The notes under the pieces are model-generated. The model saw only the letters and a program-made list of their open reading frames with translations. It did no database searches and was not told the DNA's origin. From positions 79,796,001 through 79,860,000 of the forward strand of contig NC_086097.1 of NCBI RefSeq assembly GCF_963921235.1: a stretch of DNA of 64,000 bases, written 5' to 3'. Position 1 is the first letter of the stretch; every line of letters begins with the position of its first letter. Both the position numbers and the translations under genes were made by a program. This document shows, piece after piece, positions 3,936-60,672 of this stretch. Origin of the DNA: Mobula hypostoma. Taxonomy: Eukaryota.

Positions 3936-4270
3936 TCTTACAGAGACACCTCTTTCTCCCTTATTAGGGAGAGACAGCCTGTGGTATGTCAAATACCAGG
4001 TGAACAAGTAGTCTTTGGAGTACTGCAAGTCTGTGTCTTTCCTGTTGCTTTGCTCACACTTGAGTGCTTGGTAGTGGGTGCTGATGCTTTTTCTTTTGCC
4101 GGTGGGGAGAGGGAGGATCGTTGCTGCTGCCACTTGCATGCAGGAGGGAGGAGAGCTGGTGGGGGGGGACTTTGGAGTTCTAACGTTTAACTGTCATTCA
4201 TTCTTTAGGGGCACTCCTCTGTTTTTCATGGATAGTTATGAAGAAAAAGCACTTCAGGATGTATATTGCA
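3936..4270 (+). mobile_element. Short non-coding retroelement inserted in the Rex LINE; its tail is split by a CR1 and resumes at about 6635-6677
   Basis: Rex similarity breaks abruptly at about 3935. The sequence ...caggatgtatattg continues as tatacatttctctgatactaaatgtacc...ctttgaa after the CR1. Confidence 0.55.
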
Positions 4271-6634: not shown

Positions 6635-6677
6635 ATACATTTCTCTGATACTAAATGTACCTTTCAAAACCTTTGAA

Positions 6678-11949: not shown

Positions 11950-13260
11950 AATAGAACATCTAACAGTACAGTACTGGACAGGTCCTTCAGCCACAGTGTT
12001 GTGTTGAACTAATTAAACTTTTAATTAATAGGATGAAGGTTCCTGATGACGGGTCTCAGCCCGAAATGTCAATTATTTACTCTTCACCTGGCCTGCTGAG
12101 TTCCTCCAGAATTTGTCTGTAATACAAGCATGTCATACGCTTTCTTTATCACCGTATCAACCTGTGCAGCACTTTATGGGAGCTAACGACATGGACCCTA
12201 AGACTTCTCTATATACCAACACACCTTGACATTAACAGTGCACAATCCCTTTTCATTTAATCTCCCGAAGTGCAACACTTCATAACTGGCCAGATTAAAC
12301 CCCATTAGCCATTTCTCTGTCCATATGTGCGACTGACCTGTAACACTCTGTATCCTTTGGCAATCCTCTTTACTGTGCACAACATCATTAGTCATTATAT
12401 TGTCTGTGAATTCAATAACCCATCCATCCACATTTTCACAAGATCTTTGGGGTATATCTCAAACAGCAGCAGTGCCAGTAAAGGTACCTGAGGAACACCA
12501 CTGGTCTCAAGAGTTCTAGCCGCAATAAGTCTCAGCAGCCTCTATCCTCTATCTTCTACAGGCAAGCAAATTCTGAATCCAAGAAGCCAAGTTGCCAAGG
12601 ATCCCATGCACCTTCATCGTCTGGATGAGCCTAGCATGAGGGTTCTTGTCAAATGCCTTACTAAAATCCATAGAGGCTATATCCACAGTTCTACCCTCAC
12701 AAGACACCTCCATCACTTCCTTGAAAAACTCAATTAAGTTAGTAAGACATGACTTGACCTGCACAAAGCCATGCTGTCTCTAATTAGGTCATGGTTTTCC
12801 AAACGCTCTTAAATCCTATCCCTAAGTATCCTCTCCAAAACCCTCCCTACCACTAACCAGTCTATAGTTTCCATGATTATCTGCACTTACTTTCTTGAAT
12901 AACAGAACAACATTAGGTACTTATCACTTCTCTGGGGCCTTATTTGTGGCTAGAGAGGACATGAAGATCTTGGTCAAGGCCCCAGAAATCTCATCTCATC
13001 TCAATAACCTGGGTATATCCATCAGGCCCTAGGGACTTACCTATCTTAATTTCCTTTATGAGACCCAACACCACCTCTTCTTTTACCTCAAAATGCCCTG
13101 GCATATTAGCACGATGCACACTGATCTCACTATCCTCCATTTCCTTCTCCTTCATTGTAAGTACTGACAAAATTTCTCATTTAGGACCTTGTCCAAATCC
13201 TCTGCCTCCGAGCATATTTTTGCTGCTTTATCATCAAGTGTTCCCAATGGTTCAACACCT
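11950..13260 (-). mobile_element. CR1 relic (RT), with a pseudo-LTR/hammerhead fragment at about 12040-12115
   Basis: KSCLTNLIEFF..MDFSKAFDK and KWLMGFN..EVLHFGR. Confidence 0.8.
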
Positions 13261-18994: not shown

Positions 18995-19052
18995 CTTGAT
19001 TTCATCAACCTCATCAGGTACTATCTTGTATGCAGATACTGTTCCTCCCAAC
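18995..19052 (-). CDS. GPHN: Gephyrin G-domain (MogA-like) internal coding exon, 58 nt, equivalent to vertebrate exon 3
   Basis: Minus strand reads cttttcttttgtag|G TTG GGA GGA ACA GTA TCT GCA TAC AAG ATA GTA CCT GAT GAG GTT GAT GAA ATC AAG|gtaagt, giving LGGTVSAYKIVPDEVDEIK. This matches mammalian gephyrin LGGTISAYKIVPDEIEEIK as recalled. Splice sites are consensus. Confidence 0.95.
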
Positions 19053-20969: not shown

Positions 20970-23900
20970 TAGAACATAGAAAATAGAAAACCTACAGCAC
21001 ATTACAGGCCCTTCGGCCCACAAAGCTGTGCCGAACATGTCCTTACCTTAGAACTACCTAGGCTTACCCATAGCCCTCTATTTTTCTAAGCTCCATGTAG
21101 CCATCCAGGAGTCTCTTAAAAGACCCTATAGTTTCCACCTCCACCACCGCTGCCAGCAGCCCATTCCACACACTCACCACTCTCTGCATAAAAAACGTAC
21201 CTCTGACATCTCCTCTGTACCTACTTCCAAGCACCTTAAAACTATGCCCTCTCATGCAAGCCATTTCAGCCGTGGGAAAAAGCCTCTGACTATCCACACA
21301 ATCAATGCCTCGCATTATCTTGTACACCTCTATCAGGTCACCTCTCATCCTCCATCACTCCAAGAGGAAAAGGCCGAGTTCACTCAACCTACTCTTATAA
21401 GGCATGCTCCCCAATCGAGGTAACATCCTTGTAAATCTCTTCTGCACCCTTTCTATGGTTTCTACATCCTTCCTGTAGTGAGGCTACCAGAATTGAGCAC
21501 AGTACTCCAAGTGGGGTCTGACCAGGGTCCTATATAGTTGCAACATTACCTCTCAGCTCTTAAACTCAATCCCACGGTTGATGAAGGCCAATGCACCATG
21601 CACTTTCTTAACCACAGAGTCAACCTGCGTAGCAGCTTTGAGTGTCCTATGGACTTGGACCCCAAGATCCCTCTGATCCTCCACACTGCCAAGAGTCTTA
21701 CCATTAATGCTATATTCTGCCATCATATTTGACCTACCAAAATAAATCACCTCACATTTATCTGGGTTGAACTCCATCTGCCACTTCTCAGCCCAGTTTT
21801 GCATCCTATAAATGTCCCACTGTAAGTTCTGACAGCCCTCCACACTATCTACAACACCCCCAACCTCTGTGTCATCAGCAAATTTACTAACCCATCCCTC
21901 CACTTCCTCATCCAGGTCATTTATACAAATCATGAAGAGCAGGGGGTCCCAGAACAGATCCCTGAGGCACACCACTGGTCACCGACCTCCATGCAGAATA
22001 TGACCCATCTACAACCACTCTTTGCCTTCTGTGGGCAAGCCAGTTCTGGATCCACAAAGCGAGATCTCCTTGGATCCCATGCCTCCTTACTTTCTCAATA
22101 AGCCTTGCATGGGGTACCTTATCAAATGCCTTGCTGAAATCCATATACACTACATCTACGGCTCTACCTTCATCAATCTGTTTAGTCACATCCTCACAAA
22201 ATTCAATCACGCTTGTAAGGCACCACCTGCCTTTGACAAAACCATGCTGACTATCCCTAATCATATTATGCCTCTCCAAATGTTCATAAATCCTGCCTCT
22301 CAGGATCTTTTCCATCAACTTACCAACCACTGAAGAAAGACTTGCTGGCCTATAATTTCCTGGGCTATCTCTACTCCCTTTCTTGAATAATGAAACAACA
22401 TCTGCAACCCTCCAATCCTCTGGAACATCTCCCGTTCCTATTGATGACGCAAAGATCATCGCCAGAGGCTCAGCAATCTCCTCCCTCACTTACTACCGTG
22501 GTCCCGGTGACTTATACAACTTGATGCTTTCCAAAAGCTCCAGCACATCCTCTTCCTTAATATCTCCACGCTCAAACTTTTCAGTCCACTGCAAGTCATC
22601 CCTACAAGATTCTTTTCCGTAGTGAATACTGAAGGAAAGCATTCATTAAGTACCTCTGCTATCTCCTCCGATTCCATACACACTTTTCCACTGTCACACT
22701 TGATTGGTCCTATTCTCTCACATCTTATCCTCTTGCTCTTCACATACTTGTAGAATGCCTTGGGCTTTTCCTTAATCCTCTCCGCCAAGGCCTTCTCATG
22801 CTCCTTCCTGCTAGCCTTATAATCTTCTAGATCGCTATCATTATCTAGTTTTTTGAACTTTTTGTAAGGTCTTCTTTTCTTCTTGACTAGATTTATGACA
22901 GCCTCTATACACCATGGTTCCTGTACCCTACCATCTTTTCCCTGTCTCACTGGAACGTACCTATGCAGAACCCCACGCAAATATCCCCTGAACATTTGCC
23001 ACATTTCTTCCGTATGTTTTCTTGAGAACGTTTCCAATTCATGCTTCCAAGTTCCTGCCTGATAGCCTCATATTTCCTCTTACTTCAATTAAATGTTTCC
23101 CTAACTTGTCTGTTCCTATTCCTCTCCAATGCTATGGTAAAGGAGATAGAAGTGTGATCACTATCTCCAAAATGCTCTCCCACAGACAGACCTGACACCT
23201 GACCAGGTTCATGTCCCAATACCAGATCACGTACAGCTTCTCCTCTTGATGGCTTATCTACATATTGTGTCATGAAACCTTCTTGAACACACCTAACAAA
23301 CTCCACCCCATCTAAACCCCTCACTCTATGGAGATGCCAATCAATATTTGGGAAATTAAAATCTCCCACCACAACAACCCTGTTATTATTACTCCTTCCC
23401 AGAATATGTCTCCCTATCTGCTCCTCGATGTCCCTATTACTATTGGGTGGTCTATAAAAAACACCCAGTAGATTTATTGACCCCTTCCTATTCCTAACTA
23501 CCACCCACAGAGACTCCGTAGACAACCCTTCCATGACTTCTGCCTTTTCTGCAGCTGTGACACTACCCTGATCAACAGTGCCATGCCCCCGCCTCTTTTG
23601 CCTCCCTCCCTGTCCTTTCTGAAACATTTAAAGCCTGGCACTCGAAGTAACCATTCCTGCCCCTGCACTATCCAAGTCTCCCTAATGGCCACATCATAGC
23701 TCCAAGTGCTGATCCACGCTCTAAGCTCATCGGCTTTATTCATAATACTCCTCGCATTAAAATAGACACATCTCAAACCATCGGTCTGAGCATGTCCCTA
23801 CTCTATCACCTGCCTATCCTCCCTCGCGCACTGTCTCCAAGCTTTCTCTATTTATGAGCCAACCACCTCTTCCATCGTCTCTTCAGTTTGGTTCCCACCC

Positions 23901-24530
23901 CCCAGAAATCCTAGTTTAAACTCTCCCCAATAGCCTTAGTAAACCTCCCTGCCAGGATATTGGTCTCCCTAGGATTCAAGTGCAACCCATCCTTTTCGTA
24001 CAGGTCACTCCTGCCCCAAAAGAGGTTCCAATGATCCAGAAATCTGAATCCCTGCCCCCTGCTCCAATCCCTCAGCCACCCATTTATCCTCCATCTCACT
24101 CGATTCCTATACTCACTGTCACGTGGCACAGGCAGTAATCCCGAGATTACTACCTTTGAGGTCCTGCTTCTCAACTTCCTTCCTAACTCCCTATAGTCTG
24201 TTTTCAGTACCTCCTCCCTTTTCCTACCTATGTCGTTGGTACCAATATGGACCACGACCTCTGGCTGTTCTCCATCCAACTTCAAGATATCATGGACGCG
24301 ATCAGAAACATCCCAGACCCTGGCACCTGGGAAGCAAATTAGCATCTGCGTTTCTTTCCTGCGTCCACAGAGGCCCCTATCACTGCTGACATCCTCTTCC
24401 TTTCCCTACTCTTCTGAGCCACAGGGCCAGAACTCTGTGCCAGAGGCACGACTACTGTTGCTTCTCCCAGGTAGGCCGTCTCCCCCAGCAGTACTCAAAG
24501 TACTTACTGTTAAGAGGGACAGCCGCAGGG
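20970..24530 (-). mobile_element. CR1 LINE with SGNH-esterase ORF1 C-terminus and disrupted APE-RT ORF2
   Basis: CFPGARV..VVVHIGTNDIG..DGLHLN (23911-24345); YFNARSIMNK, GVFYRPP, GDFNFP, SDH, DFSKAFDKVPH, FADD; tail seen as agaacatagaaaatagaa on +. Confidence 0.95.
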
Positions 24531-24669
24531 ATAATTTTTTGAAATTAAAGGAAATCTTACAATTTGTATTGTGCTAAAGAGGCCCTTCTGCCACAGTACA
24601 ACGTGACTCTGAATCACTGATAAAATTGGAGTATCAAAATTTTCCAATGGAAATGTTTATAAAACTATA

Positions 24670-26224: not shown

Positions 26225-26434
26225 TATATCAGCTAGTTGAATCACAGTCCAGGTGAATGGTCTAGACTAGAAAAGATGACTGTCCCATTTCCCTCCAGAT
26301 ATGCCACCTGACCCACTGAGTTCCTCTAATATTTTAGTGGTTCTGGATTACGACATTGGCAGTGTCTCTCTGTTGAGCAACACTGTTACACAGAAACAGT
26401 AAAAAAAAATTTTTTAAAAATCAACTGATTAGCA

Positions 26435-26833
26435 CTCAAAAAAGCAAAAATTGTAGATGCTGGAAATTTAAAATGAAAACAGAAAAGTACTGGAAATATG
26501 CAGGACAGGTGACAGCTGTGGAGAAAGGAAATTAAAGTTTCAGGTCTGTGACCTTGCATTAGAACTGGGAAAAGTTTAAAAATCAAAGAAATTGTAACTT
26601 GCAGAGAAGAAGGAAGATGACGAGAACAAGGGGGATGTCTGTGCAAAGATGGAGAATGAATGGCACACATAATAGTGGCACTGGCTGCAAGAGGGTAATG
26701 AAAACTGTTAACCTTTCATTAATATTAGCCAGCTTTGATACAAGCTAAAAAGGATAGTCCTCTGAAGTTTTTGAATTCTGTGCCAATTCCTCATAGCTGT
26801 AAAGTCTGAAGATGATTTGGTGTTTCTTGAGCT
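26435..26833 (-). mobile_element. Old Penelope-like pseudo-LTR/3' relic interrupted by the Tc1 derivative; continues from 28664
   Basis: tgtagatgctggaaat..gtttcaggtctgtgaccttgcattagaactgg resembles the 33360-33480 pseudo-LTR; tgtttcttgagctt|..|gttcggcctcattggaac resembles the GIY-YIG C-terminus. Confidence 0.5.
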
Positions 26834-28663: not shown

Positions 28664-29690
28664 AGTTCGGCCTCATTGGAACAATGCAAGAGATTAAAGA
28701 CAGAAAGACCAGTGTGGATGCCAAATGAGTTAAAGTGACAAACCAAAGGAAGGGCGGAATCATTGTTGTGAACAAAACATAGTTATCTCCAAGTTTGTGT
28801 ATTGGTTTCTTCAAGAAGAAGCCACAATACAGAAAACTGAATTGGAAGCTGGACAAGTAAATTATTGCATCATGTAGAAGGACTGTTCATGTAGAAGGAT
28901 CATTCAGTTCCTGAATGATGGGAAGGACAGGGGTGGGGGAAAAGGGTAGATTTGTGCCTTCTGTAGTTAGCAGGGATGATGTTGTGAGAAGGAGATGAGA
29001 GTGTGAAACAGGGAGTCATGGATTAAACAAAACACACAAAATGCTGTTGGAACTCAGCAGGCCAGGCAGCATCTATTGGGGGGGGTGGAGTACAGTTGAT
29101 GTTTTGGGCATTTTGTGTATTGCTGGGATTTGTAGTATTTACAGATTTTCTCTTGTTTGAGTTGTGGATTAAAAGCTGCATGGTGAGGGAAGGGGAAAAT
29201 TTGTTTGTGTTATCACATTTCATGTGAACATAGGATGATCTGGTGAATTTGGAAGGTGATGGGTGGAAGATGAGGGCAAGGTGAATCCCATCCTTGCTGT
29301 GAGTGGGAAGAAAGTACAAAACAGCAGGATTTCAAGAAATAATAACAGATGTGGTTGAGGGCCCTGTTAACTACAGGGGAAAAGAAACCATTGTTAAGGA
29401 AAAAGATTGCAACCTCAGAAACACTGGTGTTAAAAATATCACCATCAAAACAGATTGAGAGATCTGGGAGAATGGAATGGTACTCTTGCAAGAAGCATAG
29501 AAGGAGGCTTTACTGAGATACCTGTAAGAGCTTGTGGGCTTACAACAGATACTGGTTGCTAAATCGTGAAATGTGTGTGTATGGGGGAGGAGAGGGGGAA
29601 AAGGTGGGGGGGGGGTTGGAGAGGATGAATGATGAGTCATAGTTGGAGCTTGTGAAAGTAGGTTGGAAATTAGCAACAAAGGCGTACTAG
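28664..29690 (-). mobile_element. Penelope-like element relics plus a pseudo-LTR end at about 29025-29110
   Basis: IHLALIFHP (compare VPLVLTYHP) and FFLNNGFFSPVVNRAL; aacacacaaaatgctgttggaactcagcaggccaggcagcatcta. Confidence 0.6.
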
Positions 29691-29907
29691 ATTGTTTTTA
29701 TCTTTATACATCTAATGTAAAATGATAAAACTCGGACTATATAACAAATTAATCTGCATCTGTGAGAACCGTCCTTGAAAGACAAAGTAGTAATTGTCAT
29801 TGAATGTAACAATGAATAAGACAAAACATGCTCCACTGAACATTGCATGCACTAGAGAGTGATCTTGGTATTGAAATCAAGCTAATAACTTCAAACATAC
29901 TCCTGAT

Positions 29908-32900
29908 TATAACCATATAACAGTTACAGCACAGAAACAGGCCATCTTGGCCCTTCTAGTCCGTGCTGAAAGCTTACTCTCACCTAGTCCCACCGATCTG
30001 CACTCTGCCCATAACCCTCCATCCCTTTCCTGTCCATATACCTATCCAATTTTTCTTTAAGTGACAATATCAAACCTGCCTCTACCACTTCTACTAGAAG
30101 CTCATCCCACACAGCCACCACTCTCTGAGTAAAGAGGTTCCCTCTCGTGTTACCCCTAAACTGTTGCCCCCTAACTCTCAACTCATGTCCTCTTGTTTGA
30201 ATCTCCCCTACTCTCAATGGAAAAAGCCTATCCATGCCAACTCTATCTATACCCCTCATAATTTTAAATACCTCTATCAAGTCCCCCCTCAATCATCTAC
30301 ACTCCAAAGAATAAAGACCCAACTTGTTCAATCTTTCTCTGTAACTCAGGTGCTGAAACCCAGGTAACATTCTATGAAATCTTCTCTGTACTCTATTTTG
30401 TTGACATCTTTCCTATAATTCGGTGACCAGAACTATACACAATACTCCAAATTTGGCCTTACCAATGCCTTGTACAATTTTAACATTACATCCCAACTCC
30501 TATTCTCAATGCTCTGATTTATAAAGGCCAGCAGACCAAAAGATTTCTTCACCACCCTATCCACATGAGATTCCACCTTCAGGGAACTATGCACCATTAT
30601 TCCTAGATCCCTCTGTTCTACTGCATTCTTCAATGCCCTACCATTTACCATGTACGTCCTATTTTGATTAGTCCTACCAAAATGTAGCACCTCACATTTA
30701 TCAGCATTAAACTCCATCTGTAATCTTTCAGCCCACTCTTCTAACTGGCCTAAATCTCTCCGCAAGCTTTGAAAACCTACTTTATTATCCACAACGCCAG
30801 CTATCTCAGTATCATCTGCATACTTACTAATCCAATTTACCACCCCATCATCCAGATCATTAATATATATGACAAACAACATTGGACCCAGTACAGATCC
30901 CTGAAGCACACCGCTACACACCGTCCTCCAATCTGACACACAGTTATCCACCACTACTCTCTGGCGTCTCCCATCCAGCCACTGTTGAATCCATCTTACT
31001 ACTTCCATATTAATACCCTACAATTGAACCTTCCTAACTAATCTTCCATGTGGAACCTTGTCAAAGGCCTTACTGAAGTCCATATAGACAACATCCACTG
31101 CTTTACCCTCATCAACTTTCCTAGTAACCGCTTCAAAAAATTCAATAAGATTAGTCAAACATAACCTTCCATGTACAAATCCATGTTAACTGCTCCTAAT
31201 CAGACCCTGTCTATCCAGATAATTACATATACCATCTCTAAGAATACTTACCATCAATTTACCCACCACTGACGTCAAACTCACAGGCCGATAATTGCTA
31301 GGTTTACTCTTAGAACCCTTTTTAAACAATGGAACAACATGAGCAATACGCCAATCCTCCAGCACCATCCCCGTTTCTAATGACATTTGAAAGATTTCTG
31401 TCAGAGTCCCTGCTATTTCTACATTAACTTCCCTCAAGGTCCTAAGGAATATCCAGTCAGGACCCGGAGACTTATCCACTTTTATATTCCTTAAAAGCGC
31501 TAGTACTTCCTCTTTAATCATCATAGTTTCCATAACTTCCCTACTTGTTTCCCTTACCTTACACAATTCAATATCCTTCGTCTTAGTGAATACCAAAGAA
31601 AAGAAATTGCTCAGAATCTTCCCCCATCTCTTTTGGCTTCACAAATAGCTGTCCACTCTGATTCTCTAAGGGACCAATTTTATCCCTCACTATCCTTTTG
31701 CTATTTATATAACTGTAGAAACCCTTTGGATTTATTTTCACCTTACTGGCTGAAGCTGCCTCGTATCTTCTTTTAGCTTTTCTAATTTCTTTCTTAAGAT
31801 TCTTTTTACATTCTTTATATTCCTCGAGCACCTCATTTACTCCATGCTACCTATATTTATTGTAGATCTCTGTTTTTCCGAACCAAGTTTCCAATATCCC
31901 TTGAAAACCATGGCTCTCTCAAACTTTTAACCTTTCCTTTCAAGCTAACAGGAACATAAAGATTTTGTACCCTCAAAATTTCACCTTTAAATGACCTCCA
32001 TTTCTCTATTACACCCTTCCCAATGCACACCTTCTAAATCCTTTCGCATCTCCTCAAAGTTAGCCTTTCTCCAATCAAAAATCTCAACCCTGGGTCCAGA
32101 CCTATCCTTCTCCATAATTATATTGAAACTAATGGCATTGTGATCACTGGACCCAAAGTGCTCCCCAACACATACCTCTGTCACCTGACCTATCTCATTC
32201 CCTAACAGGAGATCCAACACTGCCCCTTCTCTAGTTGGTATCTCTATGTATTGCTGCAAAAAATCTATCCTGCACACATTTTACAAACTCCAAACCACCC
32301 AGCCCTTTTACAGTATGGGTTTCCCAGTCTATGTGTGGAAAATTAAAATCTCCCAGAATAACAACCTTGTGCTTACTACAAATATCTGCTATCTCCTTAC
32401 AAATTTGCTCCTCCACTACTTGCTCCCCATTAGGTGGTCTATAATATACCCCTAAAAGTGTTACAACATCTTTCCCATTCCTCAATTCCACCCAAATAGC
32501 CTCCCTAGACAACCTCTCTAATCTGTCCTGCCAGAGCACCGCTGTAATATTTTCTCTGACAAGTAATATAACACCTCCCCCTCTTGTCCCTCCGATTGTA
32601 ACACCTGAAGCAACGAAATCCAGGAATATTTAGTTGCCAATCACACCCCTCCTGCAACTATGTTTCACTAATACTTCCAGGTGTCAATCCATGCTCTAAG
32701 CTCATCCACCTTTCTTACAATGCTCCTAGCATTAAAATAAATGCATTTAAAAAATTTTCCACCTCTTACTCTGTTTATCACTAATAGTGCAAACAACTTT
32801 ACTATCTTTTTCTTCCTTCTCCCCTACATCTGTTCCTACACTCTGGTTCCCCTCCTCCCTTGTATCTCGTTTAAATCCACTGCAGCCTCTCTAGCAAACC

Positions 32901-33190
32901 TACCCGCAAGAATATTTGTCCCCCTCCAGTTCAGATGTAAACCGTCCCACCGGAACAGGTCCCATCTTCCCTGGAAAACTGCTCAATTATCTATAAATCT
33001 GAAGCCCTCCCTCCTGCACCATGTCTTCAGCCACGTGTTGATCTGCGCTACCTTACTATTTCTAAACCCGCCTGCATGTGGCACTGGTAGCAATCCTGAG
33101 ATTGCTATCCTGGAGGTCCTGTCCTTTAACTTGACGCCTAACTCCCTAAACTCACCTTTCAGGACCTCCTCACTCTTCCTACCCTACACC
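29908..33190 (-). mobile_element. CR1 LINE (end of esterase ORF1 plus APE-RT ORF2, frameshifted)
   Basis: GVYYRPP, GDFNFP, GSSDHN, KSPGPD, SGVLQGSVLGP, KYADD and LVRPNLEYCV; tail seen as taaccatataac on +. Confidence 0.95.
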
Positions 33191-33359
33191 ATTATGGTTG
33201 GTGAATTGTGACAACTTCAAAATCCTTTTCTAGTTGATCCCTCTATTGTAATTAACTACAGGAAAACTTAACAAGTTCTTGTCACATTATTTTAGGGTAC
33301 TATTTATAATTTTATGATTTATTCGAACAAGAATTACCACATACCTCTTAGTTTAAAAA

Positions 33360-34505
33360 AAAACACAACATTTAACTAACATACATCAAAGTTGCTGGTG
33401 AACGCAGCAGGCCAAGCAGCATCTATAGGAAGAGGGGCAGTCGACGTTTCAGGCCGAGACCCTTCGTCAGGACTAACTGAAGGAAGAGTGAGTAAGGGAT
33501 TTGAAAGCTGGAGGGGGAGGGGGAGATCCAAAATGATAGGAGAAGACAGGAGGGGGAGGGATAGAGCCGAGAGCTGGACAGGTGATAGGCAAAAGGGGAT
33601 ACGAGAGGATCATGGGACAGGAGGTCCGAGAAGAAAGACAAGGGGGGGGTGACCCAGAGGATGGGCAAGAGGTATATTCAGAGGGACAGAGGGAGAAAAA
33701 GGAGAGTGAGAGAAAGAATGTGTGCATAAAAATGAGTAACGGATGGGGTACGAGGGGGAGGTGGGGCCTTAGCGGAAGTTAGAGAAGTTGATGTTCATGC
33801 CATCAGGTTGAAGGATACCCAGAAGGAATATAAGGTGTTGTTCCTCCAACTTGAGTGTGGCTTCATCTTTACAGTAGAGGAGGCCGTGGATAGACATGTC
33901 AGAATGGGAATGAGATGTGGAATTAAAATGTGTGGCCACTGGGAGATCCTGCTTTCTCTGGCGGACAGAGCGTAGATGTTCAGCAAAGCGGTCTCCCAGT
34001 CTGCGTCGGGTCTCACAAATATATAAAAGGCCACATCGGGAGCACCGGACGCAGTATATCACCCCAGTCAACTCACAGGTGAAGTGATGCCTCACCTGGA
34101 AGGACTGTTTGGGGCCCTGAATGGTGGTAAGGGAGGAAGTGTAAGGGCATGTGTAGCACTTGTTCCGCTTGCACGGATAAGTGCCAGGAGGGAGATCAGC
34201 GGGGAGGGATGGGGGGGATGAATGGACAAGGGAGTTGTGTAGGGAGCGATCCCTGCGGAATGCAGAGAGAGGGGGGGAGGGAAAGATGTGCTTAGTGGTG
34301 GGATCCCGTTGGAGGTGGCGGAAGTTACGGAGAATAATATGTTGGACCCGGAGGCTGGTGGGGTGGTAGGTGAGGACCAGGGGAACCCTATTCCTAGTGG
34401 GGTGGTGGGAGGATGGAGTGAGAGCAGATGTACGTGAAATTAGGGAGATGCGTTTAAGAGCAGAGTTGATAGTGGAGGAAGGGAAGCCCCTTTCTTTAAA
34501 AAAGG
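33360..34505 (-). mobile_element. Penelope-like element (Neptune-like), 5'-truncated: GIY-YIG endonuclease plus 3' pseudo-LTR
   Basis: ORF 33769-34566: RVPLVLTYHP..CKRNKCYTC (cysteine linker)..VIYCVRCSRCGLLYICETRRRLGDRFAEHL (GIY-YIG variant). A pyrimidine-rich pseudo-LTR follows. Confidence 0.92.
33438..33475 (-). ncRNA. Minimal type-I hammerhead ribozyme motif in the Penelope pseudo-LTR
   Basis: UAGUC-CUGACGA-AGG(GUCUCGG)CCU-GAAA-C-GUC^GACUG: complete core, stem I UAGUC/GACUG, stem II AGG/CCU, and palindromic ACGU in place of stem III. Confidence 0.8.
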
Positions 34506-35589: not shown

Positions 35590-36560
35590 CAGACTGAGGG
35601 GAAGTGGGGGCAAACCAGAGGAGAGAGAAAGGAGAACAGGGTTATCTAAAGTTGTAAAACTCAATCCAGGCAAAATATTAGATGCTGTTCTTTTAGCTCA
35701 TGTTTGGCCTCACATTGGCGGTGGAGAAAGTTGGTGTGGGAACAGGAAAGGCGAAATTACATGCAACTTGGAGATCAGGATAGCCAATGCAGACTGAGTG
35801 TAAGCGTTCCACAAAATATTTTTCTAATGTGGATGAAACCACATTGAGAGCATTGGAAGCGGTAGATGAGGTTGGAGGAGGTTTATGCGAACCTTCTCTA
35901 GCCCACAGGGCTGTTTGGGTCCCTAGTTGGTGGTGAGGGAGGAGATGTAGAGACAAATGTTGCAACTCCTACAGCAGGTTGCGGCAAGGAAATACATTCC
36001 CTCTATTCCTTTTGGTTCCCTGTCACTCAGTTTCATTCCTTTCTACCATCAGCCTATCACCCCACACACTACAACTTCTAGTTCTCTATCCTCTCCCCCT
36101 AATGGTCCATTTGTCCCTAATCTCTCCCTTATTTGGTTCCACTATCAACTTGTTTAATTGTCTAGCATCTGCAGCCTCTTATCACCTTCCAGCATTTATC
36201 TCTACTTGCACCTTCCCTTTGGTTATCAGTAGCCAATCTGTCTCCAAATATAAGAGACAGATAGAGGAAGGGAATAGAGATATTAGAGATGGACCAAGTA
36301 AATTTGAGGACAAGGTGGAAGGTGGTGCCAATGTTGATGAAATTGAACTTGGCATAGGTGCAGGAAGCAGCACAAATGCAGTCATCAATGTAGTGTAGAA
36401 ACCTATCTATGCCTATCACCTGCCACTTTGTAGTCATTCCCCTCCCTACCTTCTTATTTTGGCTTCCACCCCCTTCCTTTCTAGTTCTGATAAAGGGTCG
36501 GCCCATAAATGTCAAATGCTTATTCCCCTCCATCGATGCTGCCTGACCTGCTGTGTCTAA
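35590..36560. mobile_element. Rearranged Penelope-like relic with inverted pseudo-LTR pieces
   Basis: Minus-strand FLHYIDDCI (RT YxDD) and YFVERLHSV..VACNF (endonuclease); plus-strand pseudo-LTR at about 36410-36555 (ttctgataaagggtcggccc..gatgctgcctgacctgctg). Confidence 0.7.
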
Positions 36561-37209: not shown

Positions 37210-39185
37210 GTACAGTATTCTAGCTGTTTGCTAGAGCTGCTGGGGAGGGCTAACTAATTTGGCAAGGGGATGGGAACCAGAGTGACAGGGCTGAGGATGG
37301 GGTAGCTGGTATGCAAATAGATAGTGTGTAATGAGTGAGGAAGGACAGTCAGATGACAGGGCAAAATCATTCAGTGGGATGAGTTGATGTGTAATATGGG
37401 GGCAAAATCAAAAATGGTGATTAAAAACAGGACTGGAGGTTTTGTAGTGGAATAAAAGCATAGACTATTTTGTAAACGGTGGGAAAATTCAAAAATGCAG
37501 AGGTGTAAACAGACTTGCAAGTCCTCGTGCAGGACATCCTAAATGTTAACTTGAAAGGTTGAGTCAGTTGTAAGGAAAGCAAATGCAATGTAGCATTCAT
37601 TTTGAGTGGGCTAGAATATAAAAGCAAGGATGTAATGCTGAGGCTGAGGTATTGGTCAGACTGCACTTGGAGTATTGTGAGGTGTAACTTTTGACACCCT
37701 TACTAATGAAGAACCTATCTACTTCCACTTTAAATATAAACAATGTCTTGGACTCCATGGCCATCTATGGCAATGAATACCACAGATTCATCATCTTCTG
37801 GCTAAAGAAATTCCACCTTGTATTTGTTCTAAATGGAGACCTCTCTATTCTGATGCTTTGCCCTCTTGTCTTGGGCTCTTTCCCCTGCCCCCCCTCAATA
37901 AGAAACATCCTCTCCATGTCCGTCATTTGCATTTTCCATCAATGGGCCTTTACCAACATGTCAGAGAAGTAAAATAATGAAGAGCACAAGCGGAGCTCTG
38001 AATTTTGGAATTCCTTGGATGTTTTATTTAGCATTCCTTTTGGTCCTGGGCATTGTGATTTTTTTTTGGGGGGGGGGAGCGGTAGGTTTGAGGATACAGC
38101 CCTGACATCCCACATCACACTAGTATTTAGCATAGCCACTTAATCATGTGGGCACGAAGTGTAGAATAGAACCAGAACAACAGGTTTAGGGTGGGGGGGG
38201 GGGTGAGATTTAGAGGAAATATTAGGAGGAACCTTTTTTTTTACCCAGAAACTGCTGAAATGCTCTACCAGACAGGGGGTCGAGGTTGGGTCACTAACAA
38301 GTGACAAGTGTGTAAATGAACACTTGAACGGCTTAGCAACACTCACAACACGCTGGAGGAACTCAGCAGGTCGGGCAGAATCCATGGAAACGATCAGTCA
38401 ACGTTTCCGGTCAGGACTGAAGAGGGAAGGGCTCAGAGGCCCTACAAAGAAGGTAGGGGGAGGGTGGGAAGGAGAAGACTGGTAGGTGCCAGGTGAAAAA
38501 CCAGTAAGGGGAAAGATAAAAGGGTGGTGGGGGGGGGAAGCAGGGAGGGGATAGGCAGGGAAGGTGAAGAAAGAATAGGGGAAAGCACAATAGGTAGTAG
38601 AAGGAGGCGGAACCATGAGGGAGGTGACAGGCAGCTGGGGGACGGGGCAGAGTGAAACTCGGATGGGGGAAGGGAGGGAAGGTAATTACTGGAAGTTGGA
38701 GAACCTGAACTGCTTAGGCAGTAGAGGGTCACGGACCAAGTATTAGGCAAAGGTGCTACTATAGAAGGGTGCCCATTGATCAGCACCATGAATTGGACTG
38801 ATGGGCTGACTTCACTTGCTGCAGTTTATAAGAATCTCACTGAAACCTATCAACTATTGAAAGCCTAGCTAGAATGGATTAGGAGAAGATGTTTCCTGTA
38901 GTGGGGAGGTCTAGGACCGGAGGGCACAGCCTCAGAATCTAAGGCACAGACTTAGAACGGGTATGAGACGGAATTCCTTTGGCCAGAGACTGGTGAATTT
39001 GTGGAATTAATTGCCACAGTCAAAGGGTATATTTAAAATGGAGGTTGATAGGTTCTTGATTGGTAAGGACAACAAAGGTTGTGGGGAAAAGACAGGAGAA
39101 TGGGATTGAGGGCCATAATGGAATGGTGGAGCAGACTCAATAGGTTGAATGGTCTAATTCTGCTCCTATGTCTCATGGTCTAATT
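37210..39185. mobile_element. Cluster of CR1 fragments (37210-37680 +, 37700-37925 -, 38140-38340 +, 38830-39185 +) with a Penelope pseudo-LTR (about 38340-38705 -)
   Basis: ctagaatataaaagcaaggatgtaatgctg..cacttggagtattgtga; CR1 3' end ggtctaattctgctcctatgtct; gctggaggaactcagcaggtcgggcag. Confidence 0.7.
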
Positions 39186-46667: not shown

Positions 46668-49600
46668 AGCATAGAACATGGAATAGTACAGCACATTACA
46701 GGCCCTTTGGCCCACAATGTTGTGCCGACCCTCAAACCCTGCTTCCCATATAACCCCCTACCTTAAATTCCTCCATATACCTGTCTAGTAGTCTCTTAAA
46801 CTTCACTAGTGTATTTGCCTCCACCACTGACTCAGGCAGTGCATTCTACGCACCAACCACTCTGAGTTTAAAAAAAAAACCTTCCTCTAATATCCCCCGT
46901 GAAATTCCCACCCCTTAAAGCCATGTCCTCTTGTATTGAGCAGTGGTGCCCTGGGGAAGAGGCACTGGCTATCCACTCTATCTATTCCTCTTATTAGCTT
47001 GTACACCTCTACCATGTCTCCTCTCATCCTCCTTCTCTCCAAAGAGTAAAGTCCTAGCTCCCTTAATCTCTGATCATAATGCATACTCTCTAAACCAGGC
47101 AGCATCCTGGTAAATCTCCTCTGTACCCTTTCCAATGCTTCCACATCCTTCCTATAGTGAGGCGACCAGAACTGGACACAGTACTCCAAGCGTGGCCTAA
47201 CCAGAGTTTTGCAGAGCTACATCATTACATTGCGTCTCTTAAACTCTATCCCTCAATTTATGAAAGCTAACACCCCATAAGCTGTCTTAACTACCCTATC
47301 TACCTATGAGGCAACTTTCAGGGATCTGGGGACATGTATCCCCAGATCCCTCTACTCCTCCACACTACCAAGTATCCTGCCATTTACTTTGTACTCTGCC
47401 TTGGAGTTTGTCCTTCCAAAGTGTACCACCTCATACTTCTCCGGGTTGAACTCCATCTGCCACTTCTCAGCCCACTTCTGCATCTTATCAATGTCTCTCT
47501 GCAATCTTCGACAATCCTCTACACTATCTACAACACTCCCAACCTTTGTGTCGTCTGCAAACTTGCCAACCCACCCTTCTACCCCCACATCCAGGTTGTT
47601 AATAAAAAATCACGAAAAGTAGAGGTCCCACAACAGATACTTGTGGGACACCACTAGTCACAACCCTCCAATCTGAATGTACTCCCTCCACCATGACACT
47701 CTGCCTTCTGCAGGCAAGCCAATTCTGAATCCACCTGGCCAAACTTCCCTGGATCCCATGCCTTCTGACTTTCTGAATAAGCCTATCATGTGGAACCTTG
47801 TCAAATGCCTTATTAAAATCCATGTAGATCACATCCACTGCACTGCACCATTTATATGCCTCAAAGTCGTCTATCAGGCTTGTTAGACACGATCTGCCCT
47901 TCACAAAGCCATGCTGACTGTCCCTGATCAGTCTATGATTCTCCAAATGCCCATAGATCCTATCTCTAATAATCTTTTCCAAACAGCTTTCCCACCACAG
48001 ACGTAAGGCTCACTGGTCTATAATTACCCAGACTGAACCTACTAGCTTTTCTGAACAAGAGGATAACATTCGCCTCCCTCCAATCCTCCAGTACCATTCC
48101 CGTGGACAACGAGGACATAAAGATCCTAGCCATAGGCTCAGCAATCTCTTCCCTCACCTCATGGAGCAGCCTGGGGAATATTCTGTCAGGCCCCGGGGAC
48201 TTATCCATCCTAATGTATTTTAACAACTCCAACACCTCCTCTCCCTTAATATCATCATGCTCCAGAACATCAGCCTCACTCATATTGTCCTCACCATCAT
48301 CAAGTTCCCTCTCATTGGTGAATACTGAAGAGAAGTATTCATTGAGGACCTCCCTCACTTCCACAGCCTCCAGGCACATCTTCCCATCTTTATCTCTAAT
48401 CAGTCCTACCTTCACTCCTGTTATCCTTTTGTTCTTCACATAATTGAAGAATGCCTTAGGGTTTTCCTTTACCTGACTCGCCAAGGCCTTCTCATGCCCC
48501 CTTCTTAAGCTCCTTTCTTGCTTCCCTATATTCCTCAACAGACACCTCTGATCCTTCCTTCCTAAACCTCATGTATGCTGCCCTCTTCCATCTGACTAGA
48601 TTTTCCACCTCACTTGTCACCCACAGTTCCTTCATCGTACCATTCTTTACCTTCCTCACCGGGACAAATTTATCCCTAACACCCTGCAAGAGATCTCTAA
48701 ACATCGACCACATATCCATAGTACATTTCCCTGCAAAAACATCATCCCAATTCACACCTGCAAGTTCTAGCCTTATAACCTCATAATTTGCCCTTCCCAA
48801 TTAAAAATTTTCCTGTCCTCTGATTCTATCCTTTTCCATGATAATGCTAAAGGCCAGGGAGTGGTGGTCACTGTCCCCCAGGTGCTCACCCACTGAGAGA
48901 TCTGTGACCTGACCCGGTTCGTTACATAATACTAGATCTAGTATGGCATTCCCCCTAGTCGGCCTGTTAACATACTGTGACAGGAATCCATCCTGGACAT
49001 ACTTAACAAACTCTGCCCCATCTAATCTTGGAACTAATTAGGTGCCAATCAATGTTAGGGAAGTTAAAGTCACCCATGATAACAACCCTGGTATTTTTGC
49101 ACCTTTCCAAAATCAGCCTCTCAATCTGCTGCTTTGTATCTCTGCTGCTACCAGGGGGCCTATAAAATACCCCCAATAGAGTAACTGCTTCCTTCCTGTT
49201 CCTGACTTCCACCCATACTGACTCAAAAGAGGATCCTGCTACATTACCCACCCTTTCTGTAGCTGTAATAGTATCCCTGACCAGTAATGCCACCCCTCCT
49301 CCTCTCCCCCCGCCCCATCCCTTTTAAAGCACTGAAATCCAGGAATATTGAGAATCCATTCCCGCCCTGGTGCCAGCCAAGTCTCTGTAATGGCCACTAC
49401 ATCATAATTCAATGTATGTATCCAAGCTCTCAGTTCATCACCTTTGTTCCTGATGCTTCTTGCATTGAAGTACACACACTAGCCCTCTACCTTACTACCT
49501 TTACACCATTTATTCTGCTTCTCTTTCCTCAAACCCTCTCTATATGTTAGATCTGGCTTTACTCCATGCACTTCTTTCACTGCTCTATCGCTCCACTTCC

Positions 49601-50370
49601 CACCCCCCTTGCAAATTAGTTTAAACCCTCCCCAACCATGCTAGCAAAACCTACCTGCAGGGATATTGCTCCCCCTTGAGTTCAGGTGCAACCCATCCAA
49701 TCTGTACAGGTCCCACCTTCCCCAGAAGAGATCCCAATGATCCAAAAATCTAAAACACTGCTCCCTGCACCAACTCTTCAGCCACGCATTCAACTGCCAT
49801 CTCCTCCATTTCTTACCATCACTGTCACGTAGCACTGGCAGCAATCCTAAGAATGCCACCCTTGAGGTCCTGTTCTTCAGCTTTCTGCCTAGTTCCCGAA
49901 ACTCACACTTCAGGACCTCATCCCTCTTACTGCCTATGTCATTGGTATCAACATGTATCATGACTTCTGGTTGCTTTCCCTCTCGTACCAGGATGTCGTG
50001 CACCCGGTCAGAGACATCCAGGACCCTGGTGCCCGGGAGGCAACAAACCATACGGGTGTCCTTCTCACGTCCACAAAATCTCCTGTCTGCTCCCCTGACT
50101 ATAGAGTCTCCAATGACGACAGCTCTCCTCTTCTCCGTCCCACCTTTCTGCATTACAGGGTCAGACTGAGTGCCAGAGGCCCTGCCACAGTGACTCACAC
50201 CTGGTCGGTCATCCCCGCCAACAGTATCCAGGATGGTAAACATTATTCAGGGGTGCTCTGCACTACCTGTCTACTCACCTTCGCTTTCCCCCCTCTGACT
50301 GTCACCCAACGACCTGCTTCCAATAGCCTAGGTGTGACTACCTCCCTGTAGCTCTCACTACCTCCCTGTA
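46668..50370 (-). mobile_element. CR1 LINE with SGNH-esterase ORF1 and disrupted ORF2
   Basis: VVIGDSIVRG..CLPG..TNDIG..DGLHLN (49641-50243); YFNARSIRNK, TETW, GDFNFP, KSPGPD, KAFDKVPH, KFADD and EYCVQFWSP. Confidence 0.95.
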
Positions 50371-55486: not shown

Positions 55487-56312
55487 ACTCCCGGACCTGT
55501 GCATACATATAGATTTGCAAATGCTAAGGTTGGTGTCTAAAACATGAGACTTCTCAAAGACATCATCTTAATGTTTGACTCATCATTCAAATTTGATTGA
55601 ATAATGTATAGTTCCTTCAATTACTCGATGGATAAAGACTAAACACATGGTAAAAAGTGAAAGGAACAAACAAATGGAAGTGCTGCAAATTTGAAATTAA
55701 AAACAAAAAATGTAGGAAATACTCAGCAGGTCACCAACAGTGAAGTCCCACCTGTAGTAGTTGTGTGCTATTATTGGAATCTACATTCAAAGAAGGCTCA
55801 CTTTTGCTCACAATGGGCCTCTTTTGCTAAGAAGCATCAGACATTTTCTAGAATACTATCAGGAACAAAATGCTTCAATTCTCATAGGTACTGGTTCAAC
55901 AAGCTGAGTTTCTTTTCCTTCCTGCAGAAAAGTTCAGGCAGGTATAGTAAAGATACTCAAATGATAAACACGTTGATAAAAGGAAAATCTGGAAAACTTG
56001 TTTCCAGTGGCAGAACAATCAAAAACTAAACAAAATAGATTTATGATAATTGGCTAAAAATGGGGATAATTATTTTTACTCAATAAATTGTATGCCAGAA
56101 AATGCGAGGACAAAGACTGAATCATTAATTTCAACAGGTAGTTTACAAATATCTAAAAGAAAATAATTTGCAAGCTCTGGGGTGGGGGAACAGCCATACT
56201 GTGTGAATAATTGCTCTCTCAACAAGACAGTATGGAGCATATGGACGCCTCTTTGCTGAATCAAATACAACTCTAAGCCAAATATAAATACAGCTAGTAA
56301 TGATGAATTCTA

Positions 56313-56528
56313 TCAAAGTTGCTGGTAAACGCAGCAGGCCAGGCAGCATCTCTAGGAAGAGGTACAGTCGACGTTTCAGGCTGAGACCCTTTGTCAGGAC
56401 TAACGAAGGGTCTTGGCCTGAAACGTCGACTGTACCTCTTCCTAGAGGTGCTGCCTGGCCTGCTGTGTTCACCAGCAACTTTGATGTGTGTTGCTTGAAT
56501 TTCCAGCATCTGCAGAATTCCTGTTGTT
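56313..56528. mobile_element. Palindromic Penelope pseudo-LTR insertion with a 15-bp target-site duplication
   Basis: Inverted arms of about 82 bp (56312-56393 and 56403-56485); taatgatgaattcta occurs at 56298-56312 and 56529-56543. Confidence 0.88.
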
Positions 56529-58499
56529 TAATGATGAATTCTACATTGCTTGGACATTTATACTTAAAGGAATAATGAATGCTGGAAACACTGAATTAAA
56601 ATTCATGATTTTTTGACATTTTCTGCAGAATGGTGAAAATGTTCAGCTTTTGATGACTTTTGGTTTAAATATGATAAGGTAAAAAGAAAATATTATGTTT
56701 TCATTGACTAAATAGTGAACATTTTACAGTATTAGCTTACCTAGACAATTACAAGTGAGCTTAATGAAAGCTCTCAATTTGGTATGCAGAGACAGCATGG
56801 CAAGATGAGAGAAACAGGGAAACCTCTCTAAAGGATAAGCTAATAAGACACAAGTTTCAGAAAAAGACTGAGCAATACAGGAAAAAGATTGTATGGCTGG
56901 TCATATTTGTTGAAATCCAGCACTAGATTTATTGAGGTGAAAACTTTTGGGGATTATGTAGATACTATTTTGCTTAAGTTAAGAAAGATTATCCTGGAGC
57001 ATGGTTAAGTATGCTGCATTCATTATTTTGCAATAATATGTGAAGTTATACTGTCTATTATTTCAATAAGGTGATAATTATGGGTTGGATATTTCAAATT
57101 TTGTCCTCTTTTCTCACTAAATGCTGTCATACATGAAGAGAAGATGCAGATATCGACTTTGGTTCAAGCTATGATACAAATAAAGCTAGAAAAAAAAATG
57201 GTACTGAACCTACACAAGTTTCAGACCAAACTACTGCTTGTAATAAACAAAGAGTTAAAAAGAACGCTGAACAGATCACAACACGTAGTAAGATCCTTAG
57301 AGCTTGGGCAGCCTTTTAAATTAGAAAAAGCAATTTCATATGGCATTATGTACAGATACATAAAAACTGTACAAATACACTTAGTTCTGTGCACAACAAA
57401 AATATTATACATCAAGTAGAGCAGCACATCTATTCCTAGCAGATCTGTCTTCCCAAGATACTGCAAGTTGAAAGGGGAAACAGTCACACATCAAACTTAA
57501 AAGTAAATTGATGTTTCATTTGATAGACACGAAAAACATAGCAGAGACTGTTCAAAGGACTAAAATGCTCCCAACTGAACTGCATGCTCTTTTTAATTAT
57601 TGATGCAACAATCTATGTCAGCAAGCAGATGCATTCAACCAGGATTCCCACACCTAACAACAGCACAGCATAGATATAATTACATTAACCAGAATATCTC
57701 CTGGGCATGTCAGAAGACTGCAGAAAAAAATGACTCTCATTATGAAATCAGCTGAAGATTATTTGTGAGATGGCTGGTAGATGGAATAGCTCAGTCATAC
57801 GTTTCTTCCCATTTTAATCAAAGACATTTTTATCTTTAGTTTGTTAATAAGCTCCATGTCATCTTCAGTTTCAAATTTTAATTTGGTAAATTTAAATAAA
57901 AACAAGCAAATGAAGCTCGTTTCTACTGACAATATTTCCCAGACACTTTAACATGGTTAAAAACAGTCAAATTGGACCTGTAAAAATCTTACAACAATGC
58001 TCCTACAGTTTCAGCCACCATCATAAAAATCACAACCTGAAATTCTCCATTACTGCAAAATTTAATTGCCTCTCATCCAATTACAGAATGTGATGAAGCT
58101 GCATTATAATCTATCTTTAGATTTAAATTACCTTCTGCATTTTTACCTATAAAGACAGAATGATTAAATACAGTAATCCATGAATAATAATTTGGCCCTA
58201 ATAGCAACAGAGAGGATTATCAGCTTTTAGATGACTGACACTATAAAATGAACCACCTTTGCTAATATATACAAAGGGACTATCAAAGTGAATTTATTCT
58301 CAGTTAAACGTCTTAAGCTAAAGAGGTGCTGTACTTATCTGAAGGGTCTTGTTAGATCTTGGAAAGAATATTATTTTACTGAAAGTTGTGAACCAGGACA
58401 TTAAAAACACCTATGTCAGACTAGAGTTCAGCTTTCAATACTATAATTCCAAGCAATCTCATCTCCAAATGACTCAACACCTCTCTTTGTAACTGATCT

Positions 58500-59020: not shown

Positions 59021-59312
59021 TAAACACAAAAGATTCTGCAGATGCTAGAAATTCAGAGCAACACTCTGAATGCTGGAGAAACAGGTCAGGCAGCATCTTT
59101 GGTAAGAACAAGCAGTCAATGTTTTGAGCTGAGACCCTTCATCAGGACCGGAAAGGAATAGGTAAGAGGCCAGAATAAAAAGGTGGAGGGAGGGAATGGA
59201 GTACAAGCTGGCAGGTGACAAGTGAGACCAGAAGAGGAAGGTGTGTGGGTGGGGAGAGGGGATGAAGCAAAAAGCTGTGAGGTGATAGGTGGAACAGGTA
59301 AGGGGCTGAAAA
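59021..59312 (-). mobile_element. Solo Penelope-like pseudo-LTR with a mutated hammerhead
   Basis: aaacacaaaagattctgcagatgctagaaat..gagacccttcatcaggac; the minus strand has CUGAUGA but AAAA in place of GAAA. Confidence 0.75.
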
Positions 59313-59613: not shown

Positions 59614-59772
59614 GCTGGAGACTTCCGGTAGCGCTCATGGAGTGAAGTCGCGTTCTTGACTCGCTCCATTACCTCTGAGTTTTTTCTCTCTATGGTCAGC
59701 TATACTTTAATTAACTATTAAGGCATCAATTTTTACAATACTTTGAATTAAACTGAATTCTCTGACAATTGG

Positions 59773-60672
59773 ATGATACTGAGATCGGCTATGTCTAAGA
59801 ACGGGAAAGACGGCAAGGATGGTAAACCTCCGGTTAAACCGAAAGCTACGGATCTCCCTCCGACTGAATCACCGGTGACTTTGGAAGCTATATCGGAGTT
59901 AATTCAGAGGGAAATTTCAACCTCTGTTAGGGAGATGATTCGTACAGAAATTATGGGCTTTGTTAAAGACCTGATTCATATGGAAATCTCAACTAAGTTC
60001 CAGAAAATTGCCGATTTAATTGATAAGATGCAAACATGTATTGCGGAACATCAGTCGGCTATATCTGGTCTTCAAAAATCCGCGCAACAAAGTGAGCTTA
60101 AGATGGGGAAAGTCGAAGAAACAATTAATGTAATGAAGAAGAAACTTGACTTTTTGACTTTTAAAAACTCTGACTTGGAATCTAGAATGCGACGGCAGAA
60201 TTTACGAATGATTGGCGTCAGGGAAGCCGTGGAAGCTAACAACCCTATGAAATATTTCTCCCAACTTTTAAAAGATGCATTCCCTACTGTATTTCCTGAC
60301 CAACCACCGCTACTGGATCGTGTTCACAGAATCCCATTATACTCGTCTAGGTCAGATAGACCTAGGCATGTTATCTTACGTTTTCATTACTTTCAAGATA
60401 AGGAGAGACTGTTTCGATTCGCTCGATCTAAAGGTTTCATTGATTTTTCGGATCTTAAGTTCCGATTCGTGGAAGATTTCAGTAAACCAATCTGGGACCA
60501 ACGGGTCCGTTACAGATCCGTGATGTCGGAATTCTATAAGATGGATTTAAGACCAGCGCTGCTGTACCCTGCACGTCTAAGGATTCGCATGTTAGATGGA
60601 GCTCTTCGTTTTTTTGATTCTCCATCGGATGCCCAGAGTTATCTGGATCAACTTTCATCTTCAACATCTTAA
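59773..60672 (+). CDS. L1 ORF1p (coiled coil, RRM and CTD; Transposase_22-like)
   Basis: DLESRMRRQNLRMIGVRE, LDRVHRI, PRHVILRFHYFQDKE, FVEDFS and LLYPARLRI; alternative start at 59791. Confidence 0.92.
   Translation: MILRSAMSKNGKDGKDGKPPVKPKATDLPPTESPVTLEAISELIQREISTSVREMIRTEIMGFVKDLIHMEISTKFQKIADLIDKMQTCIAEHQSAISGLQKSAQQSELKMGKVEETINVMKKKLDFLTFKNSDLESRMRRQNLRMIGVREAVEANNPMKYFSQLLKDAFPTVFPDQPPLLDRVHRIPLYSSRSDRPRHVILRFHYFQDKERLFRFARSKGFIDFSDLKFRFVEDFSKPIWDQRVRYRSVMSEFYKMDLRPALLYPARLRIRMLDGALRFFDSPSDAQSYLDQLSSSTS

Follow-up and report, generated by a model that had tools for sequence, protein, structure and literature searches.

Introduction

Does a hammerhead ribozyme motif in an intron of the gephyrin gene (GPHN) of Mobula hypostoma cut the transcript that carries it, or is it an idle passenger of a retroelement? 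The motif lies on the minus strand at 33438-33475 of the analysed stretch of 64,000 nucleotides (hereafter the window, to which all coordinates refer). A first-pass annotation made from the letters had described it as an intact minimal hammerhead in the pseudo-LTR of a Penelope-like element and, given its place on the GPHN strand, as a potential self-cleavage site in the pre-mRNA. The motif, its host element, its gene context and its sequence family were analysed to answer this question.

Results

A complete minimal hammerhead core at 33438-33475

Re-reading the letters returned the sequence, strand and coordinates that had been claimed, and every core nucleotide was found both in the sequence and by a descriptor. 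On the minus strand, a 5-bp stem I (5' arm 33475-33471, 3' arm 33442-33438), the outermost pair of which is a U-G wobble, encloses core nucleotides C3-A9 (33470-33464), a bulged A after A9 (33463; folding model and contig variation), a 4-bp stem II (33462-33459 with 33454-33451) with G10.1-U11.1 as its closing pair, G12-A14 (33450-33448), A15.1 (33447), C15.2 (33446), G16.2 (33445), U16.1 (33444) and C17 (33443). The palindromic ACGU at 33447-33444 stands in the place of stem III, as previously read. The predicted scissile bond, 3' of C17 in a GUC triplet, falls between 33443 and 33442 and agrees with hammerhead numbering.

The descriptor (stem I of at least 4 bp, CUGANGA, stem II of at least 3 bp, GAAA-NN-UH) was composed after the motif had been seen and was modelled on a published design. 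Scanning both strands of the window gave 33438-33475 as the sole match, versus 3 matches in 600 block-wise dinucleotide shuffles. The loose pattern CTGANGA..GAAA matched 11 times against 7.3 expected, which is not above chance. Searches of the window and of 33380-33540 against Rfam yielded 5 and 3 weak matches, none of them to a hammerhead family, an absence that we attribute to the missing stem III. This Rfam result and the ordinary fold energy of the monomer (z -1.24) are what a chance resemblance would predict, but that reading was rejected by the shuffle control together with the contig variation described below and carries negligible probability. Against it also stand the position of the motif at a Penelope-like element terminus, a published site of such motifs, and the presence of published features that the descriptor did not demand, namely the extra nucleotide between 9 and 10.1 (A 33463) and the palindromic 15.2-16.2 without helix III. 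An open helix I of 5 bp (type I) and a helix II of 4 bp, both features of the class, are likewise present; the G10.1-C11.1 pair of the class is absent, being G-U in this copy. Judged by these sequence features, 33438-33475 is a genuine copy of the minimal Penelope-like hammerhead, a wobble variant inside its family.

Stem II is better paired in a shifted register with a G10.1-U11.1 wobble

The short stem II proposed earlier exists as a helix, but its AGG/CCU pairing with a 7-nt loop was replaced by the bulged A and four base pairs. In the folding model, the A10.1-U11.1 pair of the earlier register (A 33463-U 33451) had a probability of 0.022 and G 33462-U 33451 one of 0.959, and the GGGU/GCCU form with a 4-nt loop and the bulged A lay 1.4 kcal/mol below the earlier form. 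Contigs of four public sequencing runs, out of 24 listed, carried C rather than U at 33451 (position 11.1) in 18, 29, 61 and 76% of depth, a change compatible with pairing to G but not to A, so that the A-paired register was discarded; 33462 and 33463 were not among the best 40 of 57 variable rows in these runs.

With the bulged A, the copy departs from the usual G10.1-C11.1 pair. Because C11.1 and G12 form a CpG, U11.1 probably arose by deamination. In two of the runs, X1 and X5, U predominated (82 and 71% of depth), indicating that a subfamily carrying the wobble was amplified. Standard hammerheads cleave more slowly when 10.1-11.1 is altered. A literature search found no cleavage rates for G10.1-U11.1.

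The motif resides in a truncated endonuclease-bearing Penelope-like element

The host element spans 33378-34503 on the minus strand, is about 1.1 kb long and is truncated at its 5' end. It consists of a 3' untranslated, pseudo-LTR-forming terminal part (33378-33768), with contig depth falling off below 33374-33385, and an open reading frame remnant of 244 codons plus stop (33769-34503), recognised from the open reading frame list and protein comparison. The hammerhead lies about 295 nt past the stop of this frame on the same strand. Assignment to the pseudo-LTR of a Penelope-like element thus held as far as the terminal repeat sequence is concerned; the locus itself holds a single truncated monomer, and neither a tandem nor an inverted second pseudo-LTR was found there. 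No second hammerhead unit adjoins 33438-33475, and the tandem organisation of retrozymes is absent. Truncated single copies have been described as common for Penelope-like elements (PMC4209133, PMC8557442).

The remnant contains the end of the reverse transcriptase (RT) thumb region, a CX4CX2C linker and a GIY-YIG endonuclease. A protein search with it gave 9 matches among 1227 candidates, all longer proteins. The best came from one stingray, at 73% identity, and from three sharks, which points to a cartilaginous fish as the host; at 42% identity (E 4e-50), the remnant also matched a 924-aa protein in which RVT_1 precedes GIY-YIG. Pfam GIY-YIG in the remnant itself was weak (E 0.033, below the cut-off). 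The relatives have an RT domain upstream, which the remnant has lost by 5' truncation. The conserved Cys and His residues of the aligned endonuclease region are present, and YIG has become YIC (codon near 34017), the glycine being kept in 7/7 aligned relatives. The linker reads C111-X4-C116-X2-C119. A CX2-5CxxC linker between RT and endonuclease is described as characteristic of the Neptune and Nematis clades (PMC8557442), and by this feature the endonuclease-bearing (EN+) Penelope-like element is putatively of Neptune/Nematis type.

No clear target-site duplication was found for 33378-34503, the best shared word being 9 nt and including the element's own 5' end. The 33378 end is without the tail of about 35 nt that is present at 56492-56528. 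The insertion is dead. Two further observations concern this sequence. The last 20 residues of an annotated shark protein (P0003) resemble what translation through the same hammerhead-bearing element end would give, and back-translation suggests that this gene model was built on a related element. Inside the open reading frame remnant, a splice acceptor and donor delimit 34096-34252 (minus strand, 157 nt), a possible cryptic exon on the GPHN strand; by generic splice weights this pair scores second in the window.

The motif lies on the GPHN strand, upstream of a gephyrin exon

A splice-site scan ranked a 58-nt, AG/GT-flanked minus-strand segment at 18995-19052 first of 20 candidates. It encodes residues 49-67, and its translation matched gephyrin with E 3e-6, all three matches being gephyrin. 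Since this exon is on the minus strand, the motif is on the GPHN strand, as the first-pass annotation had it. The exon is 14.4 kb downstream of the motif, which we infer to lie inside the preceding intron, with the upstream exon falling outside the window. Searches by tblastn with E. coli MogA and MoeA detected no gephyrin exon in the window (best E 1.1). Nor did six short gephyrin-type motifs, taken from outside the linker region, reveal a further GPHN exon there, none of their 8 matches having a gephyrin-like context.

No intact partner is present in the window

Including the 33438 copy, a profile search of the window located 11 element ends (minus strand, 6; plus strand, 5). Eight of the 11 were readable at the hammerhead positions, and the whole core was found only in the 33438 copy; the other three are without the 5' half of the hammerhead, and none of the 10 other copies has an intact 5' half. 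The nearest similar copy on the GPHN strand (56365-56402, minus, 22.9 kb upstream) was considered as a partner able to cut at 33443/33442 and rejected, as its G8 is changed to A and it is buried in a long inverted repeat of 86 bp with a predicted fold of -162 kcal/mol. Older, decayed element ends with broken or missing cores are found at 340-383, 12041-12109, 26246-26323, 26500-26566, 29033-29109, 36482-36559, 38352-38417 and 59071-59148.

The inverted repeat belongs to a 216-bp insertion of the same element end (56313-56528) with a 15-bp target-site duplication (within 56298-56543). Two head-to-head copies, one tailed and one tailless, are joined inside stem I of the hammerhead, and both cores are broken. 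The junction has its counterpart in the 33438 copy in an imperfect hairpin immediately upstream of the core, a match that points to cDNA fold-back as the origin of the inversion. In the GPHN intron this insertion would form a long double-stranded RNA.

Other repeats in the window include an open 306-codon frame of the L1 ORF1 family at 59752-60672 (plus, antisense to GPHN; Pfam Transposase_22, E 1.6e-9) and long decayed LINEs with endonuclease- and RT-like frames at 4075-6640, 21000-24600, 29900-33210 and 46800-50350, three of them on the GPHN strand, which we take by their motifs to be CR1-like.

Predicted folds bury the hammerhead core

In equilibrium predictions, with energy models that omit tertiary contacts, co-transcriptional folding and proteins, the isolated 38-mer paired G5-G8 with C15.2-C17 at probabilities of 0.98-0.99, a burial of the core that is helped by the C at position 7. 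A hairpin was predicted in 33462-33483 (minus strand; -8.2 kcal/mol for 33460-33486). In five longer contexts of 71-801 nt, the 5' half of the core was predicted to be sequestered by an upstream hairpin, and the fold competent for cleavage lay 6.1-9.1 kcal/mol above the ensemble. For two copies, an active dimer can be drawn through the ACGU palindrome (-11.5 kcal/mol), but it is not the lowest-energy dimer, the inactive duplex being predicted at -30.3 kcal/mol.

Published cleavage tests concern families other than that of the 33438 copy. A minimal motif from Schistosoma was reported not to cleave alone and to cleave at a low level as a dimer or trimer (PMC4209133). The motif of the anole element PAc was reported to be cut only with added protein, core mutants were without effect on insertion in vitro, and no RNA-seq reads ended at the hammerhead site (PMC11167929). 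The earlier expectation that a lone monomer should cleave poorly is thus in line with the inactive predicted folds and with the published uncut single motif. Given this precedent, the core-burying hairpins and the lack of a partner 5' half in the window, cleavage of GPHN RNA at 33443/33442 appears unlikely. The proposal of a meaningful self-cleavage site in GPHN pre-mRNA was not borne out by these predictions and the window survey; that the motif is one of very many family copies is a further point against it.

The family is abundant and the motif is conserved between subfamilies

A 331-base stretch around the motif (33290-33620) matched 3646, 3852, 18005 and 12436 contigs in the four public runs, and nearly all of these fell on the element side of the insertion boundary. 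Contig depth over this stretch does not measure copy number, but it marks the family as very abundant in related sequencing runs. The insertion junction was bridged by none of the contigs in the four runs; one, from run X19, spanned the left flank to about 33361 and stopped short of it.

Many contigs were identical over exactly 33438-33474 and divergent outside, and hundreds of loose contig ends were observed at 33438 and 33473-33474, which are the motif edges. This divergence at the edges indicates that different subfamilies have kept the hammerhead, which probably functioned in source elements. Among the best 40 of 57 variable rows, at least 10 positions were inside the motif. Those listed included six plain CpG transitions at up to 22% of depth, C17 and G1.1 among them, together with a base of the loop and a base of stem I, the latter at 53% in run X24; G12, which forms one CpG with 11.1, was changed to A in 2-10% of depth. 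C3, U4, G5, A6, G8, A9, A13, A14, A15.1 and U16.1 were not among these best 40 rows. The pattern, read from the best 40 of 57 variable rows with an 85% identity filter, appears to fit source elements under selection whose inserted copies then decay neutrally. The 33438 copy differed from one sister copy at 9 of 91 bases. Judged solely from that sister copy and the open reading frame, the copy is young, and we hold this, rather than retention by the host, to be why its hammerhead is intact.

Discussion

The reading that we favour, at a probability of about 0.87, is that of an inert 5'-truncated Penelope-like insertion that is transcribed with the GPHN intron, stays inactively folded, finds no partner in the 64 kb analysed and is lost with the excised intron. 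A truncated copy of an abundant endonuclease-bearing retroelement would have inserted in sense orientation into a long GPHN intron and carried in the minimal hammerhead of the family's terminal repeat. By analogy with published work, the motif of the source element most likely acts as a dimer, in which two copies pair through the ACGU palindrome into a stem III and the 5' half of each cuts the GUC site of the other, probably aided by the element's protein. The 33438 motif would be transcribed as part of the intron and, with no working partner nearby and in predicted inactive hairpins, would be removed with it uncut.

Three other readings were weighed against inert passage. One of them, which we consider rather unlikely, concerns the source element and is compatible with an inert 33438 copy: the motif of this subfamily may be non-catalytic, a structural or protein-binding signal or a hitchhiker, with U11.1 reflecting relaxed selection on catalysis. 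The majority of U11.1 in two runs implies that the wobble form was amplified, core mutants of the anole element inserted normally in vitro (PMC11167929), and some Penelope-like clades are described as spreading without canonical hammerheads (PMC8557442). Such relaxation is hard to reconcile with the ten core positions outside the best 40 variable rows and with a conserved island that coincides with the ribozyme. The main rival, improbable in our judgement, is a latent cleavage site at which occasional cuts occur once the element's protein, or another copy acting in trans, builds an active dimer, causing a small loss of GPHN pre-mRNA limited to cells expressing the element. The core is intact and on the transcribed strand, cleavage assisted by protein is reported for the anole element (PMC11167929), the very many family copies provide partners in trans in nuclear RNA, and retrozymes are reported to be under-represented in Xenopus introns, 42-44% of them still being intronic (preprint 10.64898/2026.07.22.740005). 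These points are countered by the predicted inactive folds and the far more stable inactive duplex, by the wobble at 10.1-11.1, and by the transcription time to the next exon of about 4 min (14.4 kb at 3.5-4.1 kb/min, quoted in PMC10274809). Slow intronic cuts also appear to be tolerated: in earlier work, as reported in PMC2995048, introns cut by a hammerhead were still spliced and a fast HDV ribozyme blocked splicing. The 6 sense versus 5 antisense copies in the window, a tiny sample, likewise speak against a latent site. There is only a slim chance that intact-core sense copies in introns are generally latent sites, such that a burst of the element would cut many pre-mRNAs, GPHN included, and selection would deplete them from the sense strand.

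Recruitment by the host, as a regulatory ribozyme tuning GPHN splicing like the intronic ribozyme of CPEB3, seems highly improbable. The geometry is similar, with a sense-strand motif about 14 kb before the next exon versus 9.9 kb for CPEB3, but a hammerhead without stem III is not a self-sufficient ribozyme. Moreover, the motif sits in an unmodified repeat copy near the family majority, its insertion junction was not bridged by contigs of the four runs, and no evidence of orthologous conservation was obtained. Inert passage of a truncated insertion accounts for the locus best.

The single GPHN locus matters little, and its family is the more useful object: being abundant, containing both C11.1 and U11.1 forms and allowing an intragenic strand-bias test, it offers a test bed for what Penelope hammerheads do. 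Should intronic copies prove to be cleaved in trans or with the help of protein, a retroelement would have a new route to harm or regulate host transcripts. Literature searches returned nothing on a ribozyme in gephyrin and nothing on this motif in sharks and rays; both were weak, and the latter was swamped by hammerhead sharks.

The kind of motif has been in print since 2014, and the 33438 locus adds one more copy. The minimal hammerheads of metazoan Penelope-like elements (Cervera and De la Pena 2014, PMC4209133) share with it the full core, a helix I of 4-5 bp, the extra nucleotide between 9 and 10.1, the palindromic 15.2-16.2, the lack of helix III, the location in the terminal repeat and the occurrence mostly as single dispersed copies. 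Their highly conserved G10.1-C11.1 pair, which is outside the published descriptor, is G10.1-U11.1 here, and helix II has 4 bp; the main-text portion of that paper used for the comparison makes no mention of cartilaginous fishes. The anole Poseidon element PAc (Frangieh et al. 2024, PMC11167929) likewise has a hammerhead in a vertebrate endonuclease-bearing Penelope-like element and, as in the family of the 33438 copy, an optional tail at its 3' end. PAc belongs to the Penelope/Poseidon clade and was assayed with its protein, whereas the present copy is truncated, has the cysteine linker of Neptune/Nematis type and is known from its sequence alone. Non-LTR retrozymes (preprint 10.64898/2026.07.22.740005), described to include one chondrichthyan genome, also contain a type-I hammerhead of Penelope origin; they are tandem non-coding repeats with one ribozyme per unit, whereas the 33438 motif is a lone copy attached to an open reading frame remnant. 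CPEB3-type intronic ribozymes likewise occupy the sense strand of long introns in neural genes. They are, however, conserved at one locus, and the CPEB3 ribozyme is active alone with a half-life of 2-3 min, whereas the 33438 motif is a repeat copy without stem III.
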